A DNA stretch of 59,088 nucleotides, taken from an uncultured virus (IMG/VR IMGVR_UViG_3300043673_000060). Lineage: Duplodnaviria > Heunggongvirae > Uroviricota > Caudoviricetes. A program made the translations under genes and the position numbers. Below, in pieces: positions 1,938 to 59,088 of this stretch. The stretch lies in the IMG/VR virus record IMGVR_UViG_3300043673_000060. One strand, 5' to 3'. The notes under the pieces were generated by a model. That model had not been told where the DNA came from and did not search any database. It saw only the letters and a program-made list of their open reading frames with translations. Each line of letters starts with the position of its first letter. Position 1 is the first letter of the stretch.

Positions 1938-2193
1938 GTCTCCACCGCTTGCCAGGTGGAGCTTCGTTTCACCCACCCTGCTCGGAATCCGCACGCAGGC
2001 ATGGGCCCGGTCTCCACCGCTTGCCATGTGGAGCTTCGTTTCACCCCAGCAGGACCTCGGGATCGACCACCCGAGTCACCTCGTCTCCACCGCTTGCCAT
2101 GTGGAGCTTCGTTTCACCCTCGTCCTTGCCGACGCCGTTGTACGCGATGATGATCTTGTCTCCACCGCTTGCCATGTGGAGCTTCGTTTCACC
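1938..2193 (-). CRISPR. CRISPR array 1 (no adjacent cas gene): 4 repeats of 36 nt, 3 spacers (36, 37, 39 nt)
   Basis: GTCTCCACCGCTTGCCA[G/T]GTGGAGCTTCGTTTCACC at 1938, 2010, 2083 and 2158; the leader copy lies on the right side. Confidence 0.97.
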
Positions 2194-2389
2194 AGGTCCC
2201 GCAGGACCCCAATCATTACGCGCCATTGCTGGCCATTGCGCGAGCGGTCGCCATTCTCGCCAACTTCTCGTCGCGCATTCGCCTCGCGCGCTCCCACCTG
2301 CTTTCCTTCTTGTCTCCGTTTTCGTTCGCGTTTTCGTCCTCGCGAGCGCCTGCCAGCACTTTCGCATCGCCCGGCCGCTCGCGCCAGCG
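2194..2389 (-). repeat. Copy of the CRISPR leader / 3' end of the cas12m-like gene
   Basis: Near-identical reverse complement of ~20409-20605; 2194-2280 is identical to 59002-59088. Confidence 0.93.
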
Positions 2390-10762: not shown

Positions 10763-10927
10763 TACGTGCCTGGTCTCCACCGCTTGCCAGGTGGAGCTTC
10801 GTTTCGCAGAAGCAAGTCACGCAGAAACTCCCAATCGGACAGTAGCTTTGGCTGGCCGCTCCGGTACAGCGTGTCGCTGACTTTGCGAATCACGAGGCCA
10901 GAGTCGAGAACGAACGCGTCAGGCATG
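10763..10927 (-). pseudogene. Truncated ORF with a tyrosine/dual-specificity phosphatase-like N-terminus, running into the solitary repeat
   Basis: My translation: MPDAFVLDSGLVIRKVSDTLYRSGQPKLLSDWEFLRDLLL, then repeat-encoded residues and a stop. LYRSGQP is typical of DSP/PTP N-termini. Confidence 0.45.
10773..10808 (-). CRISPR. Solitary CRISPR repeat
   Basis: GTCTCCACCGCTTGCCAGGTGGAGCTTCGTTTC matches 33 contiguous nt of the array-2 repeat; no neighbouring repeat. Confidence 0.9.
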
Positions 10928-17719: not shown

Positions 17720-17839
17720 CTACGGCCACGCCACCGTCAGCGCCAGGGCGAGCAGGACGATGCCCGCGCCGATGAGGCCCATGGCGACGCCTGCTAGCGC
17801 CAGCGTCGAACCGTCGCTCTGTCTCCACTGCTTGCCCAT
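17720..17839 (-). CDS. 39-aa single-TM microprotein whose ATG lies inside a degenerate CRISPR repeat
   Basis: My translation: MGKQWRQSDGSTLALAGVAMGLIGAGIVLLALALTVAWP*. Confidence 0.5.
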   Translation of the reverse strand: MGKQWRQSDGSTLALAGVAMGLIGAGIVLLALALTVAWP

Positions 17840-17846
17840 GTGGAGC
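17821..17846 (-). CRISPR. Degenerate solitary CRISPR repeat (hairpin plus 3' end)
   Basis: GTCTCCACTGCTTGCCCATGTGGAGC versus GTCTCCACCGCTTGCC-ATGTGGAGC: 1 mismatch and 1 insertion; the CTCCAC/GTGGAG stem is intact. Confidence 0.75.
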
Positions 17847-18631: not shown

Positions 18632-18660
18632 TTGACAGGTGCCCATGGTGTCACTAGTTT
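18632..18660 (+). promoter_or_regulatory. Sigma70-type promoter of the cas12m-like gene, with a TGACA-N11-TGTCA inverted repeat
   Basis: TTGACA-N17-TAGTTT, ending 8 nt before the ATG at 18669. Confidence 0.7.
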
Positions 18661-18668
18661 GGCGATCG

Positions 18669-20582
18669 ATGAAACTCGTCTACAAGTTCGCCGCCGCCGC
18701 GCCACACGAAAATTCGGATCTCGTCGCCGCACAAATGCGGCTGGGGCACAAGTACCGCAACACGCTCACGGAGATCGAGCGCGGCAGGCGCGCCGCCGTG
18801 CGCGCCGCCGAGACGGAGATCGGCGACATGTCGGCTGCACGGAAGGCGTTGTCGGCCGCCGTGGCCGAGGTGGATCTGGCCATGGGCGCCATCGCGCGCC
18901 ACCGCGCTCACTCGCGCAAGCGCGACGAGCCGGCCGAGATGAGGCAAGCGTTCAAGACCGCCAAGGCGGCGAAGAAAGCGGCTGCTGACGCCTTCCGGGA
19001 AGTGCGAGACAAGCTACGTCTCGATCCGGGGCTCATCGACGCCAAGGATGCCATCGGCGAGCGCGCCAACGAACTGAGAGCCTCCGCGCGCGGCTACAGC
19101 GGCCTGGGCGAGCATGGCCCCCATTACGGCGCGTGGGGCACGTACTTGCTCGTCGAAAAAGCAGCCGGCGACTCCTTCAAGTCGATCGCGCTGTACGACA
19201 AGCGATCCGAGCCGGCCGATCCGAGCTTCGCGCGGTGGGTGGGCGAGTCGTCTGTCGGCGTTCAGCTGCAGGGCGGCCTCGCTGTCGCCGACGCCGTCAA
19301 CGGTGCCGACACGCAGGTCCGTATCACGCTGCCGGACGCGCGCGCATGGGACCGCCGTGGCCGCACGCACCGCGAATGCGAGCAGTTTGCGCGCCAAGCG
19401 CAGCTGTCCATCCGCATCGGGAGCGATGGACGCAGGCCCGTCTGGGCCAGTTGGCGCGTGGACATGCACCGACCGTTGCCAGACGGGGCCGTCCTCAAGG
19501 AAGTGGCCGTGCATTGCCGTAAGGAGGGGCCGTTTTCCAAGTGGTTCGCGACGTTCACGCTGGACGCGCCCGCAAAGGTGCGCGGCGGCTCGTGCGCAGG
19601 CTCCGGCACTGTCGCCGTGGACGTGGGATGGCGCGTCATGGGCGACGAGCTGCGGGTTGCTGGGTGGCAGGACGCGACCGGCGCCCGCGGGGAACTGCGT
19701 CTGTCCGCGAAAGACCTGGCCCTACTGCGCGCACCTGAAGCGCTGCGCTCGCAGCGCGACCTGCGATTCGACGTGGCTCGCGGGCGAGTCAACGCGTGGT
19801 TGCGAGCCAACAGCACGATTCTGCCCGACTGGCTCCGCCTCGCGTCCGCAAACATACACGCGTGGCGGGCAGAGTCGCGACTCGCGGGCCTGCACGGCCG
19901 GTGGCGCGGCGCCCGATTCGGTGGCGACGTCGAGATATACGACGTGCTCAGCAACTGGGCGTCGCGCGCCAGGCACGACTGGGCTGTCGAGAGTCAGGCG
20001 CGCGGACAGGCGCTGCGGCGTCGCCGCGAAAAGTACCGCGTATGGGCGGCGCAGCTGGCGACCCGGTACGACACGATTGTGATCGAGAAATTCGACAAAC
20101 GTAAGGTGGCCAAGAGGCCCGACACGGACGCGCAGTGCGCGCAGACGGCCGAGCAGATCGCCCGCGACGAGTATGCGCGTGCGCACCGCGTCCTGGCCTC
20201 CACGAGCGAGCTTTGCGGCTGCCTGGTGGATGCCGGGCGCAGTCGACAGAGCGCCGTGCTGGCCATGCCGTGCGCCGACACAACGAGAACATGTCCCACG
20301 TGCGGACTGGTCGAGTCGCGCGACGCGGCGGCGAGCGTGTCGCTCACGTGCGACTGCGGCGCCGCATGGGACCAGGACGTGGACGGGGCGCCGTCCATCC
20401 TGCTTGCACGCTGGCGCGAGCGGCCGGGCGATGCGCAAGTGCTGGCAGGCGCTCGCGAGGACGAAAACGCGAACGAAAACGGAGACAAGAAGGAAAGCAG
20501 GTGGGAGCGCGCGAGTCGAATGCGCGACGAGAAGTTGGCGAGAATGGCGACCGCTCGCGCAATGGCCAGCAATGGCGCGTAA
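18669..20582 (+). CDS. cas12m: Compact type V CRISPR effector, Cas12m (V-M / V-U1)-like, TnpB-derived, 637 aa
   Basis: RuvC-I VAVDVGWR (D318), RuvC-II IVIEKFD (E473), zinc finger CPTC..CDC, RuvC-III WDQD (D570). N-terminal QMRLGHKYRN, VGVQLQ and MHRPLP segments recall Cas12m. A CRISPR array starts 23 nt after the stop. Confidence 0.82.
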   Translation: MKLVYKFAAAAPHENSDLVAAQMRLGHKYRNTLTEIERGRRAAVRAAETEIGDMSAARKALSAAVAEVDLAMGAIARHRAHSRKRDEPAEMRQAFKTAKAAKKAAADAFREVRDKLRLDPGLIDAKDAIGERANELRASARGYSGLGEHGPHYGAWGTYLLVEKAAGDSFKSIALYDKRSEPADPSFARWVGESSVGVQLQGGLAVADAVNGADTQVRITLPDARAWDRRGRTHRECEQFARQAQLSIRIGSDGRRPVWASWRVDMHRPLPDGAVLKEVAVHCRKEGPFSKWFATFTLDAPAKVRGGSCAGSGTVAVDVGWRVMGDELRVAGWQDATGARGELRLSAKDLALLRAPEALRSQRDLRFDVARGRVNAWLRANSTILPDWLRLASANIHAWRAESRLAGLHGRWRGARFGGDVEIYDVLSNWASRARHDWAVESQARGQALRRRREKYRVWAAQLATRYDTIVIEKFDKRKVAKRPDTDAQCAQTAEQIARDEYARAHRVLASTSELCGCLVDAGRSRQSAVLAMPCADTTRTCPTCGLVESRDAAASVSLTCDCGAAWDQDVDGAPSILLARWRERPGDAQVLAGAREDENANENGDKKESRWERASRMRDEKLARMATARAMASNGA

Positions 20583-20605
20583 TGATTAGTGTCCTACGGG
20601 GACCT
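20409..20605 (+). promoter_or_regulatory. Probable CRISPR leader overlapping the effector 3' end
   Basis: CGCGAGCG (20415-22) and CGCTCGCG (20450-57) form an inverted pair, with a direct CGCTCGCG copy at 20552-59. The same segment precedes the other two arrays. Confidence 0.7.
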
Positions 20606-21201
20606 GGTGAAACGAAGCTCCACCTGGCAAGCGGTGGAGACCTCTCCCACTCGCCCTCTGCGCGCACCCCTGCGACGGGTGAAACGAAGCTCCACCTGGC
20701 AAGCGGTGGAGACGTACGGCAAGGCGCCGCGTCCTCGGCGGGCGACGGCTCGGTGAAACGAAGCTCCACCTGGCAAGCGGTGGAGACAAAGTGCCCGTGT
20801 GGTGTTACGACAACCTGGTCGCGGGTGAAACGAAGCTCCACCTGGCAAGCGGTGGAGACATGGCGTCGATGACCGCCGCTTCGGGGTCGGGAAAGGGTGA
20901 AACGAAGCTCCACCTGGCAAGCGGTGGAGACAAGATCGGCCGGACCAACGACCCGTGGCGACGGGCGGGGGCCTAGGTGAAACGAAGCTCCACCTGGCAA
21001 GCGGTGGAGACGGAGCCGCCGCCTCGAAGTGGATCGGCTCAGTCATGGGTGAAACGAAGCTCCACCCGGCAAGCGGTGGAGACCGTGACGAACGAGCGCG
21101 CCCGTGCCCGGTGCGGCGCCGGTGAAACGAAGCTCCACCTGGCAAGCGGTGGAGACGAGGCGACGGGTGAAACGAAGCTCCACCTGGCAAGCGGTGGAGA
21201 C
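20606..21201 (+). CRISPR. CRISPR array 2 (effector-adjacent): 9 repeats, 8 spacers (36, 38, 36, 36, 44, 36, 37, 9 nt)
   Basis: GGTGAAACGAAGCTCCACCTGGCAAGCGGTGGAGAC at 20606, 20678, 20752, 20824, 20896, 20976, 21048 (one variant base), 21121 and 21166; stem CTCCACC/GGTGGAG. Confidence 0.98.
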
Positions 21202-31141: not shown

Positions 31142-32560
31142 CTACGGGCCCTGCTGAGCGACGCGCACGCCGCAGTCTTCCATGATGTAGGCGCGCAGGT
31201 CGGGGTTCGCGGCGAGGACGGTGTACCAGTCCTCGGTGACCTCGAAGCCCTTGACGCCGAGCGTCGTCTTGAACGTGCCGCTCTTGAAGACGGCGCGCCC
31301 CGTGGGCAGCTGCTGCGCGACCAGGCCGGAGCCGTCGAGCTGCAGCTCGGCCGCGACGGGCAGAACGCCGGTGCCGTCGAGCGATCCGCCGAAAATCGAC
31401 TGCGAGTCGGCCACGGCCTGCGGGAAGACGCTGTTGCCGAACGTGTTGCCGTACTGGCTGAGGGCCAGGTACGCCTGCATCGTGGCGATCTGGTTGGGGT
31501 CGTTCTCATGCATCTTCAAGCCGATGGGCACGCCCGCCTTGATCAGGTAGGGGATGCCGAGCTTGCGGAACTCGCTGTTGCCCTTGAGCAGCGAGTGGAA
31601 GTCGATGCCGCCGTAGGTGGCGCCGACCACGGTGTCGTCGTTGCTCGGGCGGAAGACGCCGATGGCCTTGTTGGTCGTGAGGGCCGACGCGTTCTGCGCC
31701 GATCCGATGCGGATGCGGTTGGTCTTCAGGAACTGGAACGGCGACCCCTGCTGGTTGTAGTGGTAGTTCGAGCGCGCGACGGCGTTGATGATGTCGACTT
31801 CGCTCGACGAGCCGGTGCCCTTCTGCGCGTTGTCGGGCATGTACGCCGAGTAGCGCAGGACCTCGTCCATGATGTTGGTGTGCTGGCCGATCTGCCAGCG
31901 CAGGTTGTAGCCGCGCACCATGTGCCAGGCCGCGTAGTTGCTCCACCAGCCGTTTTCGAGAACGGCCGGCAGGTACGCCGAGGCGCCGGTCGCGATGCCC
32001 GCCGCGCCACCGAGGGCGCCGTTGAGGAGATCGAGCTGCGTGTAGACGTCCGGCGAGATGGGCACGACGGTCGTCGTGCCGGGCGGGGGCTCCCACGCGT
32101 TGCCGAAGGCCGTCCAGCACATCGGCTCCGTCTCGACGTGCATGAAGATCGCGCAGGCGATCATGTACGTGTTCAGCTCGCCCAGCTGCGCCATGGTCGA
32201 CTCGACGTAGTCGACGCCCTGCGCGTCCTTGCCCACGTTGAACGGGTCGAATTCCGGCCCGAAGATCTTGTTGACGGCCTGATCGCCCAGCGGGCCGTCC
32301 CAGCCGAGGCGGACCGACTCGACGGTCTGCATGTTGAAGATCGGGCAGTTGACCGAATCCTTGACCCAGTCGGCCCACGCACCCACGCCGGCCTTGCCAA
32401 GACCCTCGAAGTCGGCGCCGGCAGCGCGGATCTTGTGCAGGTCCGGCGCCATGCCGAAGCCGATCGCGTCGTTGCGGTTGCGGATTTCGTCCGGCTTGAT
32501 GTGGCGGAACTTGGTCTTCGCGGTGGCCTGACGGGGCTGGATCTTGGAAAGGTTGCTCAT
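31142..32560 (-). CDS. Candidate major capsid protein (fold unassigned)
   Basis: 472 aa; strongly C/G-ending codons suggest high expression; central in the structural operon. The CDS is secure; the function is inferred. Confidence 0.5.
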   Translation of the reverse strand: MSNLSKIQPRQATAKTKFRHIKPDEIRNRNDAIGFGMAPDLHKIRAAGADFEGLGKAGVGAWADWVKDSVNCPIFNMQTVESVRLGWDGPLGDQAVNKIFGPEFDPFNVGKDAQGVDYVESTMAQLGELNTYMIACAIFMHVETEPMCWTAFGNAWEPPPGTTTVVPISPDVYTQLDLLNGALGGAAGIATGASAYLPAVLENGWWSNYAAWHMVRGYNLRWQIGQHTNIMDEVLRYSAYMPDNAQKGTGSSSEVDIINAVARSNYHYNQQGSPFQFLKTNRIRIGSAQNASALTTNKAIGVFRPSNDDTVVGATYGGIDFHSLLKGNSEFRKLGIPYLIKAGVPIGLKMHENDPNQIATMQAYLALSQYGNTFGNSVFPQAVADSQSIFGGSLDGTGVLPVAAELQLDGSGLVAQQLPTGRAVFKSGTFKTTLGVKGFEVTEDWYTVLAANPDLRAYIMEDCGVRVAQQGP

Positions 32561-32730: not shown

Positions 32731-34290
32731 TCAGTCCTGCTGGGTATCCTCGGCGCAGCCCCAGGCGCGCGGCACGCTGGCGAACCGCCGACGGGGGAGA
32801 CCGGCAAACGTGCCAGGAGCTGGCTGTCCGCCGCCACGGCTGAAGACCTGGCTGGCGTGAGGGATGCTGATCGGGGCGCCGGTGACCGTACGTCCGGGCG
32901 GAACCGGGGACGGGAGCGGAACCGGGTAGGCCTGGTTCGGCAGCGGTGGCGCCGTGAACGCCGGTGGCGGCAGCGCGGGCGGGGGCGGGGGCGGGATCGG
33001 GATCGGGATCGGAGCCGGGGGCTGCGGCTGGACGATGGGAGCCGGCGGAGTGGGCGACGTCGAAGACGACGTCGCAGGTGCGCCGGTCTGCGGTAGGGCC
33101 GTGGAGCCAGAGCTGCCCCTGAAGCGGCAGCATGCGCCGACGCCCGTGGTGCAGTTCACGCAGCCGCACCCGGCCGCGCCGAGACCACTGCGGTCCTGCG
33201 AGACGTCGATGCCGGAGTACGGCAGGGACGGGTATTTCGAGACGTCGCCACCCGCGTACTCGGTCCTCTTCATCATCGAGCGCAGCTCGGCGTCGTACAG
33301 ACGCTGAGCGTAGCTCGTGTTGCGGAACAGGTAGGCGAACAGCTCGGTGGCAGCCTTGCCCAGGATTCGCACACCGGCACCGAAGCCGAAGAACTGCAGC
33401 GAACTGCGGCCGACGGGCGACTCGATGAAGGCGGCGATGCCAAACGGGATGCCGGCGATGCCGATGCCGGCTGCCCAGCGCTTCCAGTCCATCGGCGCGA
33501 GCACCGCGGTGCCGTTGTACAGGCCCATGTAGTCGCCCGTGGCGGGCGGCATGTCCACGTACGCCCCGGCCGTGCCGGTCAGCGCGTGCGTGGCCAGGAC
33601 GCGATCGAGCGCGTCGGCAGCGACGAACCCGAGCATGCCCGTGAAGGCCCCGACGCCCAGCTCGGCCGGCGTCAGCGGATTCTCCATCGCGTAGCCACGG
33701 CCGCTGCGACGTGTGATGCTGCGGCCACGGCCGCTGCGACGAGCGCCCGAACGACGCGAGGAGCCGCTCTTGCGGCTCTTGCGGCTCTTGCGACGCTTGC
33801 GGGGCGTCTCGGCGCTCATGTGGCGGCGAACGCGGACGCGCTTGCTGCCGCGCTTGGCGTAGTGGCCGCGCACGGAGTGCTTGCGCGAGGACCGGCTGCT
33901 GCGACGCTTGCGCGGAGCCTCGCTGGCGCCCGCACGGCGACGGCGGCGCGCGGCGACGGCGCTCTTCTTCATCGAGAGCTTGCGGCGACCGCCCGAGCGG
34001 CGCTTGCGCGGAGTCTCAGCGGCCTCGCTGGCACGACGAGCCCGGCGCTTCGGCTTCTCGTCGCTCATGTGGGACTTGACCCGGTAGCCGCGCACCCGGT
34101 GAGACTTCACCGTGTGCGACTTGACCTTGTGGCGCCGACGGGCCTTGCGCGGGGCGGCCGACTTGCGGCTGGCGCGACGCGCGGCCTTGCGGACCGTCTT
34201 GGTCTTCCTGCTGCCGCCCTTCGCCTTGCGGGCGCGAGCACTGGCACGCGTTGCTTTTCGCTGGGCTTTCTTTTGCGCCTTCGTGGGCAT
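32731..34290 (-). CDS. Highly basic (K/R/S-rich, histone-H1/protamine-like) protein with membrane segments and a Pro-rich tail; putative genome-condensing core protein
   Basis: About 200 N-terminal residues dominated by R/K/S, then hydrophobic helices and poly-Pro; AAGGA RBS before the ATG at 34290. Confidence 0.7.
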   Translation of the reverse strand: MPTKAQKKAQRKATRASARARKAKGGSRKTKTVRKAARRASRKSAAPRKARRRHKVKSHTVKSHRVRGYRVKSHMSDEKPKRRARRASEAAETPRKRRSGGRRKLSMKKSAVAARRRRRAGASEAPRKRRSSRSSRKHSVRGHYAKRGSKRVRVRRHMSAETPRKRRKSRKSRKSGSSRRSGARRSGRGRSITRRSGRGYAMENPLTPAELGVGAFTGMLGFVAADALDRVLATHALTGTAGAYVDMPPATGDYMGLYNGTAVLAPMDWKRWAAGIGIAGIPFGIAAFIESPVGRSSLQFFGFGAGVRILGKAATELFAYLFRNTSYAQRLYDAELRSMMKRTEYAGGDVSKYPSLPYSGIDVSQDRSGLGAAGCGCVNCTTGVGACCRFRGSSGSTALPQTGAPATSSSTSPTPPAPIVQPQPPAPIPIPIPPPPPPALPPPAFTAPPLPNQAYPVPLPSPVPPGRTVTGAPISIPHASQVFSRGGGQPAPGTFAGLPRRRFASVPRAWGCAEDTQQD

Positions 34291-34315
34291 CTTCTGGTCC
34301 TTCTTGCGTCGAGAT

Positions 34316-34343
34316 GTCTCCCCCGCTTGCCTGGTGGAGCTTC
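34316..34343 (-). CRISPR. Degenerate solitary CRISPR repeat in the 5' UTR of the basic-protein/capsid operon
   Basis: GTCTCCCCCGCTTGCCTGGTGGAGCTTC matches the repeat at 26/28 nt and ends 25 nt before the ATG at 34290. Confidence 0.8.
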
Positions 34344-34925
34344 CGCCGTGGGACCCTGTTCGTATCCGTGACCGCCGCGCTTGACGGTGATTCTCACCTC
34401 GTCCGGGCCGAGCCGTCAAGCCTTTCGAGCGTTTTTTTTGCGAGGCAGCTCGCAGACCGCGCTTTCGTGCACGGTGCAGAACGGGCGTGGCGGCGTGCTC
34501 GGGCGCGTTTTCGCGGTTCCGGGCCAAAATATCGGTGTAGCTGACTCCCACGGAGCGGATTGTCGCGCAGGGAGCTGTCTCGCACAAGCGGATCCTCATC
34601 GCGCTCACGCAGTGCGCGGGCCACGGGCCACCTTAGACGGCGCGAAGTGCGCGCTCGAATCGCGCCATCAGGAGCACGACCGAGCCGCGCATCGTGCCGT
34701 CCCCATCATCGACGACCATCAGTTCGCGCCCGACGGCACTCAGTAGGCGCGCGGCGTTGAAGGTGTGGACGACGCAGGCCGTATTCTCCAGGCCCATCCG
34801 GGTCAGGCGTCGATTCGCCCACGCTACCGCGTCCAGCATCTCGTTCGTTGCGAGTTGGCTATCCATAATCTGACGACGCGCGAGAGCGCCAGCTCTGACA
34901 GCGGCACCAACGAAAGCGCCACGGC

Positions 34926-35411
34926 CTACGGCCAGACCAAACCCCTATCGTCGATCATCGCCTTCGAGCACGGCTGCAGGTCGAGCCTGTACGTGCGGTT
35001 GCGGCGATACAAAAACGCCTCCCCTTTGCCCTTGAACAGGAAGACGATGCGGTACAAACCGTGCGGCTTGTTGATGTCGTGGTGGTACCCGCCCGGAGCT
35101 TTTGTGCCGACGCGGAAATACAGCACCCGCTTGACGTCCCCCACGAACTTCCAGTCACCGATCGCCTTGGGCGGCAGCGAAATCATGCTCACGGACGCGT
35201 CGTAATCACGACCGAAATAGTTACGCGGTGCACCACTGAACTGTTCGTCCGTCGCGGGCTTCGTGCCGCGCCTGTACGACATCACAAGCAGGCTGCACGC
35301 AGGCCACGATTTCCCGTCCGGATCGTGCATCATGCCCGCGCGGCGCGGCGCGGCGATCTTTCGCCCATCGACGAGGTCGAAGGCGACATCCTCGGCCTTG
35401 TCGATCAGCAT
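34926..35411 (-). CDS. Hypothetical protein
   Basis: 161-aa protein-like ORF. Confidence 0.6.
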   Translation of the reverse strand: MLIDKAEDVAFDLVDGRKIAAPRRAGMMHDPDGKSWPACSLLVMSYRRGTKPATDEQFSGAPRNYFGRDYDASVSMISLPPKAIGDWKFVGDVKRVLYFRVGTKAPGGYHHDINKPHGLYRIVFLFKGKGEAFLYRRNRTYRLDLQPCSKAMIDDRGLVWP

Positions 35412-40171: not shown

Positions 40172-40810
40172 CTAGCTCCCCGACGCAGGGTCGCTGATCA
40201 CGGTGGTGTTGGTGCCGGCCGGAACGGTCGCTGCACCCGAGATGTCGGTGCTGCCGGTGTAGCCGGCGCCCCACCACGTGGTCGAGTCGGGCGCGGTAAC
40301 GCCGTTCCAACCAGGCGGGTTGGCGAACGTGTACGCCGCGTTCCAGTTGCTGGACATCGGCACCGGCGGCGAGACGCTTGCCAGAGCGTTCTTCACGGCG
40401 GCGTACGTCTTTTGTCCGGGCCAACCATCAGCCGTGAGCCCCGCTGCTGACTGCAGGGACTTGTAGTACGGGACGTTCGCTGCGGTGTACCCGGCAGCAT
40501 CCTGAGCCTTGTTCGCGTTGACTGCGGCAGCCTGCAGGGCGGTGTACGTCGTCGTCGGCCCCGCGGGTCCCGCCGGAGTCGTCGGCCCCGCGGGTCCCGC
40601 CGGAGTCGTCGGCCCCGCGGGTCCCGCCGGAATGGCCGGCGTCGCGTTCGCGCTCTTGTTCTTGAGTAGAAGCACCGCTGCGATCACGCCTGCGGCGACG
40701 ACTCCGGTGCCCGCGATCCATGCAGCGCGGTGACCATGTCGCGCGGGTAGATGCACGATGCGCCCCGTGGTACGTGCGCCGCTCGAACGACCGCTGCGTC
40801 GTGTTGCCAT
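40172..40810 (-). CDS. N-terminally anchored protein with a peptidoglycan-binding (PG_binding_1-like) motif
   Basis: LQSAAGLTADGWPGQKT motif; 3 x 27-bp tandem repeat at 40551-40631 encoding PAGPAGPTT. Confidence 0.65.
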   Translation of the reverse strand: MATRRSGRSSGARTTGRIVHLPARHGHRAAWIAGTGVVAAGVIAAVLLLKNKSANATPAIPAGPAGPTTPAGPAGPTTPAGPAGPTTTYTALQAAAVNANKAQDAAGYTAANVPYYKSLQSAAGLTADGWPGQKTYAAVKNALASVSPPVPMSSNWNAAYTFANPPGWNGVTAPDSTTWWGAGYTGSTDISGAATVPAGTNTTVISDPASGS

Positions 40811-58261: not shown

Positions 58262-58297
58262 GTCTCCACCGCTTGCCATGTGGAGCTTCGTTTCGCC
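58262..58297 (-). CRISPR. Solitary repeat with its own promoter, in the 5' leader of the SSAP-like operon
   Basis: 35/36 match to the repeat; 100 nt from array 3; 62 nt upstream of the ATG at 58199. Confidence 0.9.
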
Positions 58298-58397: not shown

Positions 58398-59001
58398 GTC
58401 TCCACCGCTTGCCATGTGGAGCTTTCGTTTCACCTTGTCGACGCAGCGCCACGCGCAGGTCTCCACCGCTTGCCATGTGGAGCTTCGTTTCACCAAGCGG
58501 TGGAGACAAGCAGACGGCGCTCCTCCTGGTTGTCTCCACCGCTTGCCATGTGGAGCTTCGTTTCACCGCGCGCGCGTTGGGACGCCCACCGCGCACCTCC
58601 ACGTCTCCACCGCTTGCCATGTGGAGCTTCGTTTCACCCTGCCAGCGCAGATCGCTCGTGGTCTTGTGATCGGGTCTCCACCGCTTGCCATGTGGAGCTT
58701 CGTTTCACCCTACACGACCACCTCGTGACGGCAACGCGCCCGCGCGTCGTCTCCACCGCTTGCCATGTGGAGCTTCGTTTCACCATGCCGCGCCGAGCGG
58801 GTTCGCAGCCTTCCTGAAGTGTCTCCACCGCTTGCCATGTGGAGCTTCGTTTCACCGCCAGACCGACGAGGACGAGCGGGCATCGCGAGTGAGTCTCCAC
58901 CGCTTGCCATGTGGAGCTTCGTTTCACCGGGTCTCCATCGCCGACGCGCAAGAGGCGCAGCCCGGGTCTCCACCGCTTGCCATGTGGAGCTTCGTTTCAC
59001 C
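58398..59001 (-). CRISPR. CRISPR array 3: 9 repeats, 8 spacers (24-39 nt)
   Basis: Repeats at 58398 (37-nt variant), 58459, 58532, 58603, 58674, 58749, 58821, 58893 and 58966. Confidence 0.98.
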
Positions 59002-59088
59002 AGGTCCCGCAGGACCCCAATCATTACGCGCCATTGCTGGCCATTGCGCGAGCGGTCGCCATTCTCGCCAACTTCTCGTCGCGCATTC
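59002..59088 (-). repeat. Leader / effector 3'-end copy, cut by the window edge
   Basis: Identical to 2194-2280. Confidence 0.9.

Follow-up and report, generated by a model that had tools for sequence, protein, structure and literature searches.

The viral record IMGVR_UViG_3300043673_000060 carries, on the minus strand, a gene for a basic protein followed by a gene for a 472-amino-acid (aa) beta-sandwich protein that is presumed to be structural, and within the first of these genes lies a short element, designated ψ1 here, that matches the repeat of a CRISPR system encoded in the same DNA. The stretch analysed, referred to throughout as the window, is 59 kb long with ~67% GC and comes out of a 121-kb contig. 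It holds a gene for a putative type V-M effector, cas12m, together with three CRISPR arrays and several repeats that stand alone. We report that ψ1 is a copy of this genome's type V-M repeat, with an identity far beyond chance, and we give about an even chance to the reading that it is an orphan, decayed copy of the element's own repeat, a relic absorbed into the linker of a protein and the leader of an internal transcript.

The CRISPR repeat is 36 nucleotides (nt) long and is present in the window as 24 intact copies, in two variants, one of array 2 and one common to arrays 1 and 3. It is read here with the hairpin at its 3' end, beside the guide, because the Cas12m2 scaffold is so described and because the repeat cores of 19 out of 19 other phage arrays end in GAC on the cas12m strand. 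A search of the window DNA with the 28-nt core of the repeat, in which 3 mismatches at most were allowed, returned 25 copies, compared with none from 100 shuffles, and a covariance model trained on 7 intact repeats, with ψ1 left out of the training, scored the 24 intact copies at 62-66 bits and ψ1 at 34 bits (E 7e-8). A sequence-only reading of this DNA had put the match at 26 of 28 positions with the 3' GGAGAC retained; this holds for the array-2 variant (25/28 for the variant of arrays 1 and 3), and the GGAGAC end is indeed kept exactly. ψ1 is not a full 36-nt repeat, its 5' 8 nt (positions -36 to -29) being unrelated to the repeat, and since 8 of 8 positions differ there, compared with 2 of 28 in the remainder, the boundary looks like a recombination junction and not like the product of even decay. 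There is no other repeat copy within 13 kb of ψ1, and hence no repeat-spacer-repeat periodicity. The repeat pattern had 0 matches in the viral contig collection under an exact pattern search and 0 exact matches in 185,579 species genomes.

The two changes that separate ψ1 from the array-2 variant are a loop substitution, T-17A, and a stem substitution, T-7G. With the second of these, in the helix that joins positions -8 to -3 with -24 to -19, beside the 3' AC, the fifth pair, an internal one, becomes an A.G mismatch and 5 of the 6 pairs are left, or else an A is bulged out in another register. For comparison we assembled 22 functional phage Cas12m repeats, namely the two variants of the window, that of the virus Rctr197k and those of 19 IMG/VR phage loci. 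Their helix sequences are widely divergent; all 6 pairs are present in 20 of the 22, the remaining 2 have lost only the innermost pair and an internal mismatch occurs in none (0/22). The unbroken helix of at least five pairs by which we judged a functional Cas12m CRISPR RNA (crRNA) scaffold is thus lacking in ψ1. The predicted folding energy of the ψ1 hairpin is -8.1 kcal/mol (z +0.37 relative to shuffles), that of the intact repeats -12.6 and -9.6, and the 113-nt leader around ψ1 (34271-34383) has no more structure than its shuffles (z +0.31).

The setting of ψ1 was examined in relatives, whose loci (33 in number) were fetched by means of the conserved 472-aa protein encoded downstream; 17 of them carry the basic-protein gene and, with the window, make up the 18 genomes compared here. 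Upstream of the internal ATG of this gene the reading frame has 0 stops in 18 of the 18, as far as a conserved upstream start; in each of the remaining two frames the number of stops ranges from 0 to 6, and it is one or more in 33 of the 36 frame-genome cases. A conserved N-terminal peptide of 25 aa, M..DYLxxLxxNRxxxPEHAA..PVL, follows the upstream start, and in the stretch that codes for it the differences between the window and the relative L005, read from the sequences, lie mostly at third codon positions. After this peptide the predicted protein continues with a basic linker, in which ψ1 lies, a basic region, a hydrophobic region and a Pro-rich tail.

The same coding sequence contains what appears to be a second set of expression signals. 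A TTGAC[GA] box is found in 17 of the 18 genomes, always as the Leu-Thr codons TTG-AC[GA]; in neighbouring genes TTG accounts for 23 of 536 Leu codons and ACA for 5 of 536 Thr codons. The TTGACG box that had been described upstream of ψ1, and its place in one arm of an inverted repeat, were both found: TTGACG-18-GAGAAT is the sole promoter-like site in 33800-35000, where 0.0 are expected, and the arms of the inverted repeat, each 9 nt, 100% complementary and 25 nt apart, lie one over the -35 box and the other over the predicted transcription start. Perfect inverted repeats of at least 6 bp overlap the box in 10 of 17 genomes, compared with ~1-2 expected (per-genome chance ~0.04-0.11), which hints at an operator. 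ψ1 itself ends at 34316 and the ATG occupies 34290-34288, in agreement with the 25 nt given earlier for this interval, and the relatives have GGA, GAGG or AGGA Shine-Dalgarno motifs 7-13 nt ahead of the ATG.

Because the upstream frame is open and has a conserved start, and because the box, the Shine-Dalgarno motif and the ATG are conserved as well, we conclude that the basic-protein gene has two predicted in-frame starts and a putative internal promoter, which would imply two forms of the protein, of 606 and 519 aa. It follows from this arrangement that ψ1 would be leader in the internal transcript and coding sequence in the long one. The previous description of the site as a 5' untranslated region (UTR) is therefore apt for the internal transcript and incomplete otherwise, since the stretch is also coding, in a frame that is open in 18/18 genomes. 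In the long frame ψ1 reads GGSSTRQAGET, so that the SSTWQAVET of the intact repeat becomes SSTRQAGET; both substitutions are non-synonymous, W to R and V to G, and to judge from the residues they bring in they would fit a basic, disordered linker and not RNA pairing.

ψ1 is confined to this lineage as far as the comparison extends. At up to 6 mismatches in 28 there is no ψ1-like copy in 34 loci, comprising the 33 relatives of the 472-aa protein and Rctr197k, in which all 18 repeat matches fall within the array. The closest relative, L002, has 83% identity in the 472-aa protein and is likewise without a ψ1 copy; it keeps the upstream peptide and the box, and its leader is unrelated and shorter. 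In local alignments of the repeat with the leaders of the 17 relatives, 16 were at chance level (p 0.11-1.0), the exception being an 11-mer in L010 that lies upstream of the box. A likeness to the repeat that was seen by eye in the leaders of L004 and L005 was set aside as chance (p 0.3-0.5). Nor was cas12m found in the loci of the relatives or in 5 whole IMG/VR relatives. Since complete relatives are 73-78 kb, compared with at least 121 kb here, and since cas12m was not found in the relatives' DNA examined, cas12m and its arrays appear to be accessory cargo that this lineage carries. The closer relatives of the 472-aa protein (P0004, P0009, P0010) are encoded on contigs of 98-142 kb.

The effector is encoded next to array 2. 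Its open reading frame (ORF) resembles the solved structures 23vw_A ('CRISPR-associated DNA-binding protein Cas12m'; phmmer E 1.8e-50) and Cas12m2 8hhl (phmmer E 3e-20), and PADLOC names it Cas12u1 (E 3e-75); on the similarity to solved Cas12m proteins and the adjacent same-strand array we identify the predicted product as Cas12m, of type V-M. According to the available parts of PMC11013384 and PMC10442227, Cas12m effectors bind DNA flanked by a protospacer-adjacent motif (PAM) without cutting it and thereby silence transcription, and pre-crRNA processing, within the repeat, is done by the effectors themselves, which bind a 36-nt repeat-derived scaffold. In the Cas12m2 structure, as given in the accessible text of PMC10442227, the 5' end of the scaffold (-36 to -30) is disordered and cleavage is placed 'upstream of the scaffold'. 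Binding without cutting and pre-crRNA processing are known for characterised members, and by family membership they would apply to the present protein too. As far as the available descriptions go (PMC11013384, PMC10442227), MmCas12m, GoCas12m and Cas12m2 resemble the present system in an effector of ~600-650 aa, an array directly after the gene and a 36-nt repeat that ends in GAC with its helix beside the guide; the phage-like 121-kb contig, the three arrays, the duplicated array leaders and the dispersed lone repeats set it apart from those characterised systems. Relatives of Cas12m, at 24-39% identity, are also encoded in 47 IMG/VR loci (L060-L106) on viral contigs of ~5-245 kb, most of at least 40 kb; most of these loci have an array directly after the gene, and L095/L096, L102 and L105 have further arrays several kb off. 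The Cas12m proteins nearest to that of the window (P0107-P0111) have 62-67% identity.

The coordinates of the features are collected in Table 1.

Table 1. Positions in the window of ψ1, its surroundings, the Cas12m locus and the other repeat-bearing sites
Feature	Position	Strand	Remarks
ψ1, degenerate solitary repeat copy (repeat positions -28 to -1)	34316..34343	-	DNA search and covariance model
Stretch from ψ1 to ATG	34291..34315	-	25 nt, would-be guide positions 1-25; contains GAAGGA 34298-34303
Internal ATG	34288..34290	-	Met then A/P/T-K in 18/18 genomes
Promoter-like site	34390..34419	-	TTGACG (34419-34414), 18 nt, GAGAAT (34395-34390); promoter scan
Inverted repeat GCTTGACGG / CCGTCAAGC	34379..34421	.	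arms 34379-34387 and 34413-34421
Basic-protein long ORF	32731..34551	-	606 aa from GTG 34551; frame 0 stop-free in 18/18
472-aa beta-sandwich protein, presumed structural	31142..32560	-	105 homologues
cas12m, putative type V-M effector	18639..20582	+	647-aa ORF; database form 637 aa
CRISPR array 2	20606..21201	+	9 repeats; directly 3' of cas12m, 24 nt past its stop
CRISPR array 1	1938..2193	-	4 repeats
Copy of cas12m 3' end (last ~197 nt), ahead of array 1	2194-2389		duplicate of 20409-20605
CRISPR array 3	58398..59001	-	9 repeats
Copy of cas12m 3' end, ahead of array 3	59002-59088		87 nt; copy truncated by window end
Intact solitary repeat	10773..10808	-	34/36; between two minus-strand genes
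Intact solitary repeat	58262..58297	-	62 nt ahead of ATG 58199 of a 477-aa gene (phrog_3657)
ψ2, second degenerate copy	17821..17846	-	covariance model 23.9 bits, E 5e-5

The arrays bear marks of exchange with one another. In array 2 a 'spacer' of 9 nt (21157-21165) separates two repeats, and the same letters open the trailer of array 1 (1929-1937), while the last 13-16 nt of a spacer in array 3 (58495-58531) are a piece of the repeat in antisense; each of these features points to recombination among arrays. The 3' end of cas12m, which recurs ahead of arrays 1 and 3, probably serves as the leader of an array, and a second cas12m may lie just past the window end, upstream of array 3. As for what the arrays target, nothing convincing was found for the spacers in the window or the 34 loci. 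The first 18 nt of the array-2 spacer 20642-20677 match L002 at 2233-2250 with 1 mismatch (E 0.035, small database), perhaps an indication that related phages are among the targets of the arrays.

Three arrays, duplicated cas12m 3' ends, the 9-nt 'spacer' and the antisense fragment make the shuffling of repeats in this genome evident, and on the interpretation that we favour, ψ1 as a decayed relic, ectopic recombination or gene conversion, which would have scattered arrays, array leaders and lone repeats alike, is the most likely means by which it was placed. It would have come to lie where the basic-protein gene evolves fastest, in the basic linker between the conserved N-terminal peptide and the conserved internal start, which is also the leader of the transcript from the internal promoter, and it would now evolve as linker and leader and not as a Cas12m handle, with little or no CRISPR-related function. 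ψ1 derives from the repeat, lies in sense orientation in an open frame, is specific to this lineage and has a broken helix. Several observations nevertheless weigh against a relic. The five Gs on the 3' side still permit a helix of six pairs in which one A is bulged. What ψ1 retains of the repeat, -28 to -1, corresponds to the ordered portion of the Cas12m2 scaffold, with its 3' end exact, and to that extent the expectation voiced beforehand, that ψ1 keeps what a mature crRNA handle would contain, is borne out. ψ1 is moreover sense-oriented between a conserved promoter box and a Shine-Dalgarno motif, and two other lone copies lie just ahead of start codons, ψ2 and the 58262 repeat, the latter with a promoter-like site. 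The scope, lastly, is 59 kb of a 121-kb contig.

These points belong to the alternative in which ψ1 is a working cis-acting site, the hairpin being gripped by Cas12m on the transcript of the internal promoter and perhaps cut upstream, with the next ~20 nt, Shine-Dalgarno motif included, held like a guide; translation of the short form would then fall, or the mRNA be stabilised, according to the level of Cas12m, and ψ2 and the 58262 repeat would belong to the same regulon. We regard this as a possibility of the second rank, behind the relic. The geometry suits it well. The sequence-only reading had proposed that an effector loaded at ψ1 would cover the ribosome-binding site as its 'spacer', and the layout for this is present, with ψ1 in sense orientation, the Shine-Dalgarno-like GAAGGA at would-be guide positions 13-18 and the ATG at positions 26-28; the stem change, which breaks the helix, tells against the proposal. 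The effector would by family be one that binds and processes repeat RNA, and all six repeat-bearing sites in the window are co-oriented with the local genes. Precedents for the layout exist among engineered switches, in which a Cas-binding hairpin in the 5' UTR represses translation or destabilises the mRNA: CARTRIDGE (PMC10115826), a Cas12a direct repeat in mRNA (PMC9943656), Csy4 (PMC4604432) and Cas6f MORTISE (PMC13478208) have, in the available portions of these papers, the hairpin-before-start arrangement proposed for ψ1, and differ from it in being synthetic, whereas ψ1 is natural. A limited literature search found no natural Cas-responsive 5'-UTR switch in the partly available sources, which does not show that none has been published.

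Against a cis-acting role stand the internal mismatch, which none of the 22 functional repeats has, and a hairpin stability at the level of shuffles. None of the fetched relatives has a ψ1 copy and none of them showed cas12m; the ψ1 stretch is also coding; and lone repeat copies within 10 kb of cas12m occur in just 2 of the 19 other phage cas12m loci, both at array edges. Repeats that survive in short intergenic regions would, in addition, be expected near start codons anyway. A cis-acting switch at ψ1 is thus physically plausible, but with the helix broken the case for its function is weakened and we hold it to be doubtful.

ψ2 and the intact 58262 repeat are better candidates for a cis-switch than ψ1, and they are also what is new here: ψ2 over a start codon near cas12m, and an intact lone repeat with a promoter-like site. 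The helix of ψ2 is intact (6/6 pairs), and after ψ2 the next best match of the covariance model has only E 0.08. It starts 3 nt past the stop of a GroES-like gene that is divergent from cas12m, ~800 bp from the latter, and within its loop lies the start codon, ATG, of a 39-aa ORF (17720-17839) with one hydrophobic helix, 35 of whose 39 codons end in G or C by manual count. The product of this ORF could be a small membrane peptide or a toxin; no such ORF could be recognised behind the GroES-like genes in 5 distant relatives, and PADLOC gave no match for it. At the 58262 repeat, the promoter-like TTGACG-17-TAGTTT (58325-58298), which was read by eye and is under the scan threshold, abuts the 5' edge of the repeat, and the gene begins 62 nt beyond. 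This promoter-like site lies in the 100-nt gap that separates the repeat from array 3, and the stretch between the repeat and ATG 58199 is able to form a hairpin of its own.

The trailer that follows ψ2 (window 17804-17824) has 8 + 6 nt, AGAGCGAC and TCGACG, in common with the leaders of L004 (6663-6681) and L005 (6117-6135). The likeness is marginal, with p 0.012-0.03 uncorrected and two loci that are not independent. TCGACGC also follows ψ1. Sharing of this TCGACG type could be the trace of an older unit of repeat plus trailer, or chance.

Taken further, the cis-acting alternative would make Cas12m an RNA-binding regulator of phage messages as well, with a natural cis regulon of leader hairpins at ψ1, the 58262 repeat and ψ2, an idea that we think improbable. 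Within it, the 39-aa peptide could be a toxin whose translation requires that Cas12m be absent or inhibited. Like CreTA, such an arrangement would be an addiction or anti-anti-CRISPR safeguard, and would differ from CreTA in being guide-free and in acting on RNA, in cis.

A further alternative, which we think less probable again, is that ψ1 gives rise to a trans-acting crRNA-like RNA, either guiding Cas12m to a PAM-flanked target in the manner of CreR and crlRNA or serving as a guide-less decoy that titrates a Cas12m in the manner of RNA anti-CRISPRs (Racrs) and single repeat units (SRUs). Lone or degenerate repeats with such roles have been described, so far as the accessible parts of PMC10120712, PMC10651486 and 10.1101/2023.03.10.532045 go, and as Cas12m would silence by binding without cutting, self-targets need not be lethal. 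The mini-CRISPRs CreR and crlRNA, as presented in the available text of 10.1101/2023.03.10.532045 and 10.1101/2024.10.29.618823, resemble ψ1 in that their repeat is degenerate and could supply the effector with a 'guide' that serves no immune purpose, and their action, in trans and on DNA, is to repress cas or toxin promoters by way of a partial guide match beside a PAM. ψ1 is unlike them in having no partial target in the window, and the action proposed for it is in cis on RNA. The first 16 nt of its guide at up to 3 mismatches have 1 match in the window, the locus itself (null 0.25); in a BLAST search its 40-nt 'spacer' matched nothing more than 15 nt, in L002; the flank at the ψ1 locus is GAC and not a T- or C-rich PAM; and ψ1 is 13.7 kb from cas12m. 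The guides of ψ2 and of the lone repeats likewise have no trans targets in the window.

Of the decoys, Racrs (PMC10651486, in the parts available) share with ψ1 the solitary repeat unit in a viral genome and the mimicry of a repeat, but they mimic host repeats and so disable host Cas proteins, whereas ψ1 copies the phage's own repeat; the absence of the repeat from the 185,579 species genomes leaves no host system known for it to mimic. There is a likeness of form to the standalone repeat-like sequences and SRUs of CRISPR-cas loci and virus genomes (Shmakov et al. 2023, PMC10120712), which in the accessible text are lone, near-identical or degenerate repeats that have no second repeat beside them and for which both relic and regulatory readings are proposed. 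Unlike these, ψ1 comes from a phage-carried type V-M system and lies at its distance from cas12m inside the ORF and leader of a structural-type gene; UTRs and translation have 0 occurrences in the available text of that paper.

That ψ1 resembles the repeat by chance, or through shared coding constraints on basic linkers, in which GGCAAGCG-type strings (Gly-Lys-Arg codons) do recur, as in the 11-mer of L010, has next to nothing in its favour and is ruled out by the shuffles (0/100 match at up to 3 mismatches) and the covariance model (E 7e-8), the leaders of the relatives being also unlike the repeat.

The 472-aa protein encoded downstream has no Pfam or PHROG match, and tblastn against phage records found nothing for it; scans of the viral contig collection with this protein, and likewise with cas12m, yielded no loci. 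Its structural model (mean predicted local distance difference test score, pLDDT, 79.6) is without a Foldseek match at E <= 0.001, and the best VIA-align score, Z 4.8 to PRD1 P3 with a root-mean-square deviation of 8.4, is weak and level with unrelated beta-sandwiches. The weak best fold matches include jelly-roll capsid proteins (PRD1 P3, HCIV-1, FLiP), and the label of a core/capsid operon in the sequence-only reading is a presumptive one. Other genes of the window match tailed-phage tail and baseplate families. The window also contains, at 40551-40631, 3.0 perfect tandem copies (100% identity) of a 27-nt unit; no Rfam family reached its gathering score in the window and no tRNA was found there.

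The layout of the basic-protein family is in itself unusual and would escape annotation pipelines: besides a conserved upstream start there are an in-frame promoter box and, internally, a conserved Shine-Dalgarno motif with its ATG. Should ψ1 be a relic, it would be a clear record of the spread and decay of a CRISPR repeat in the genome of a phage with a Cas12m of its own, and would show such a repeat absorbed into the linker of a protein-coding gene. If, on the other hand, ψ1, ψ2 or the 58262 repeat is bound by Cas12m, it would be a naturally occurring analogue of the engineered 5'-UTR switches, and Cas12m would gain a role in the control of translation.

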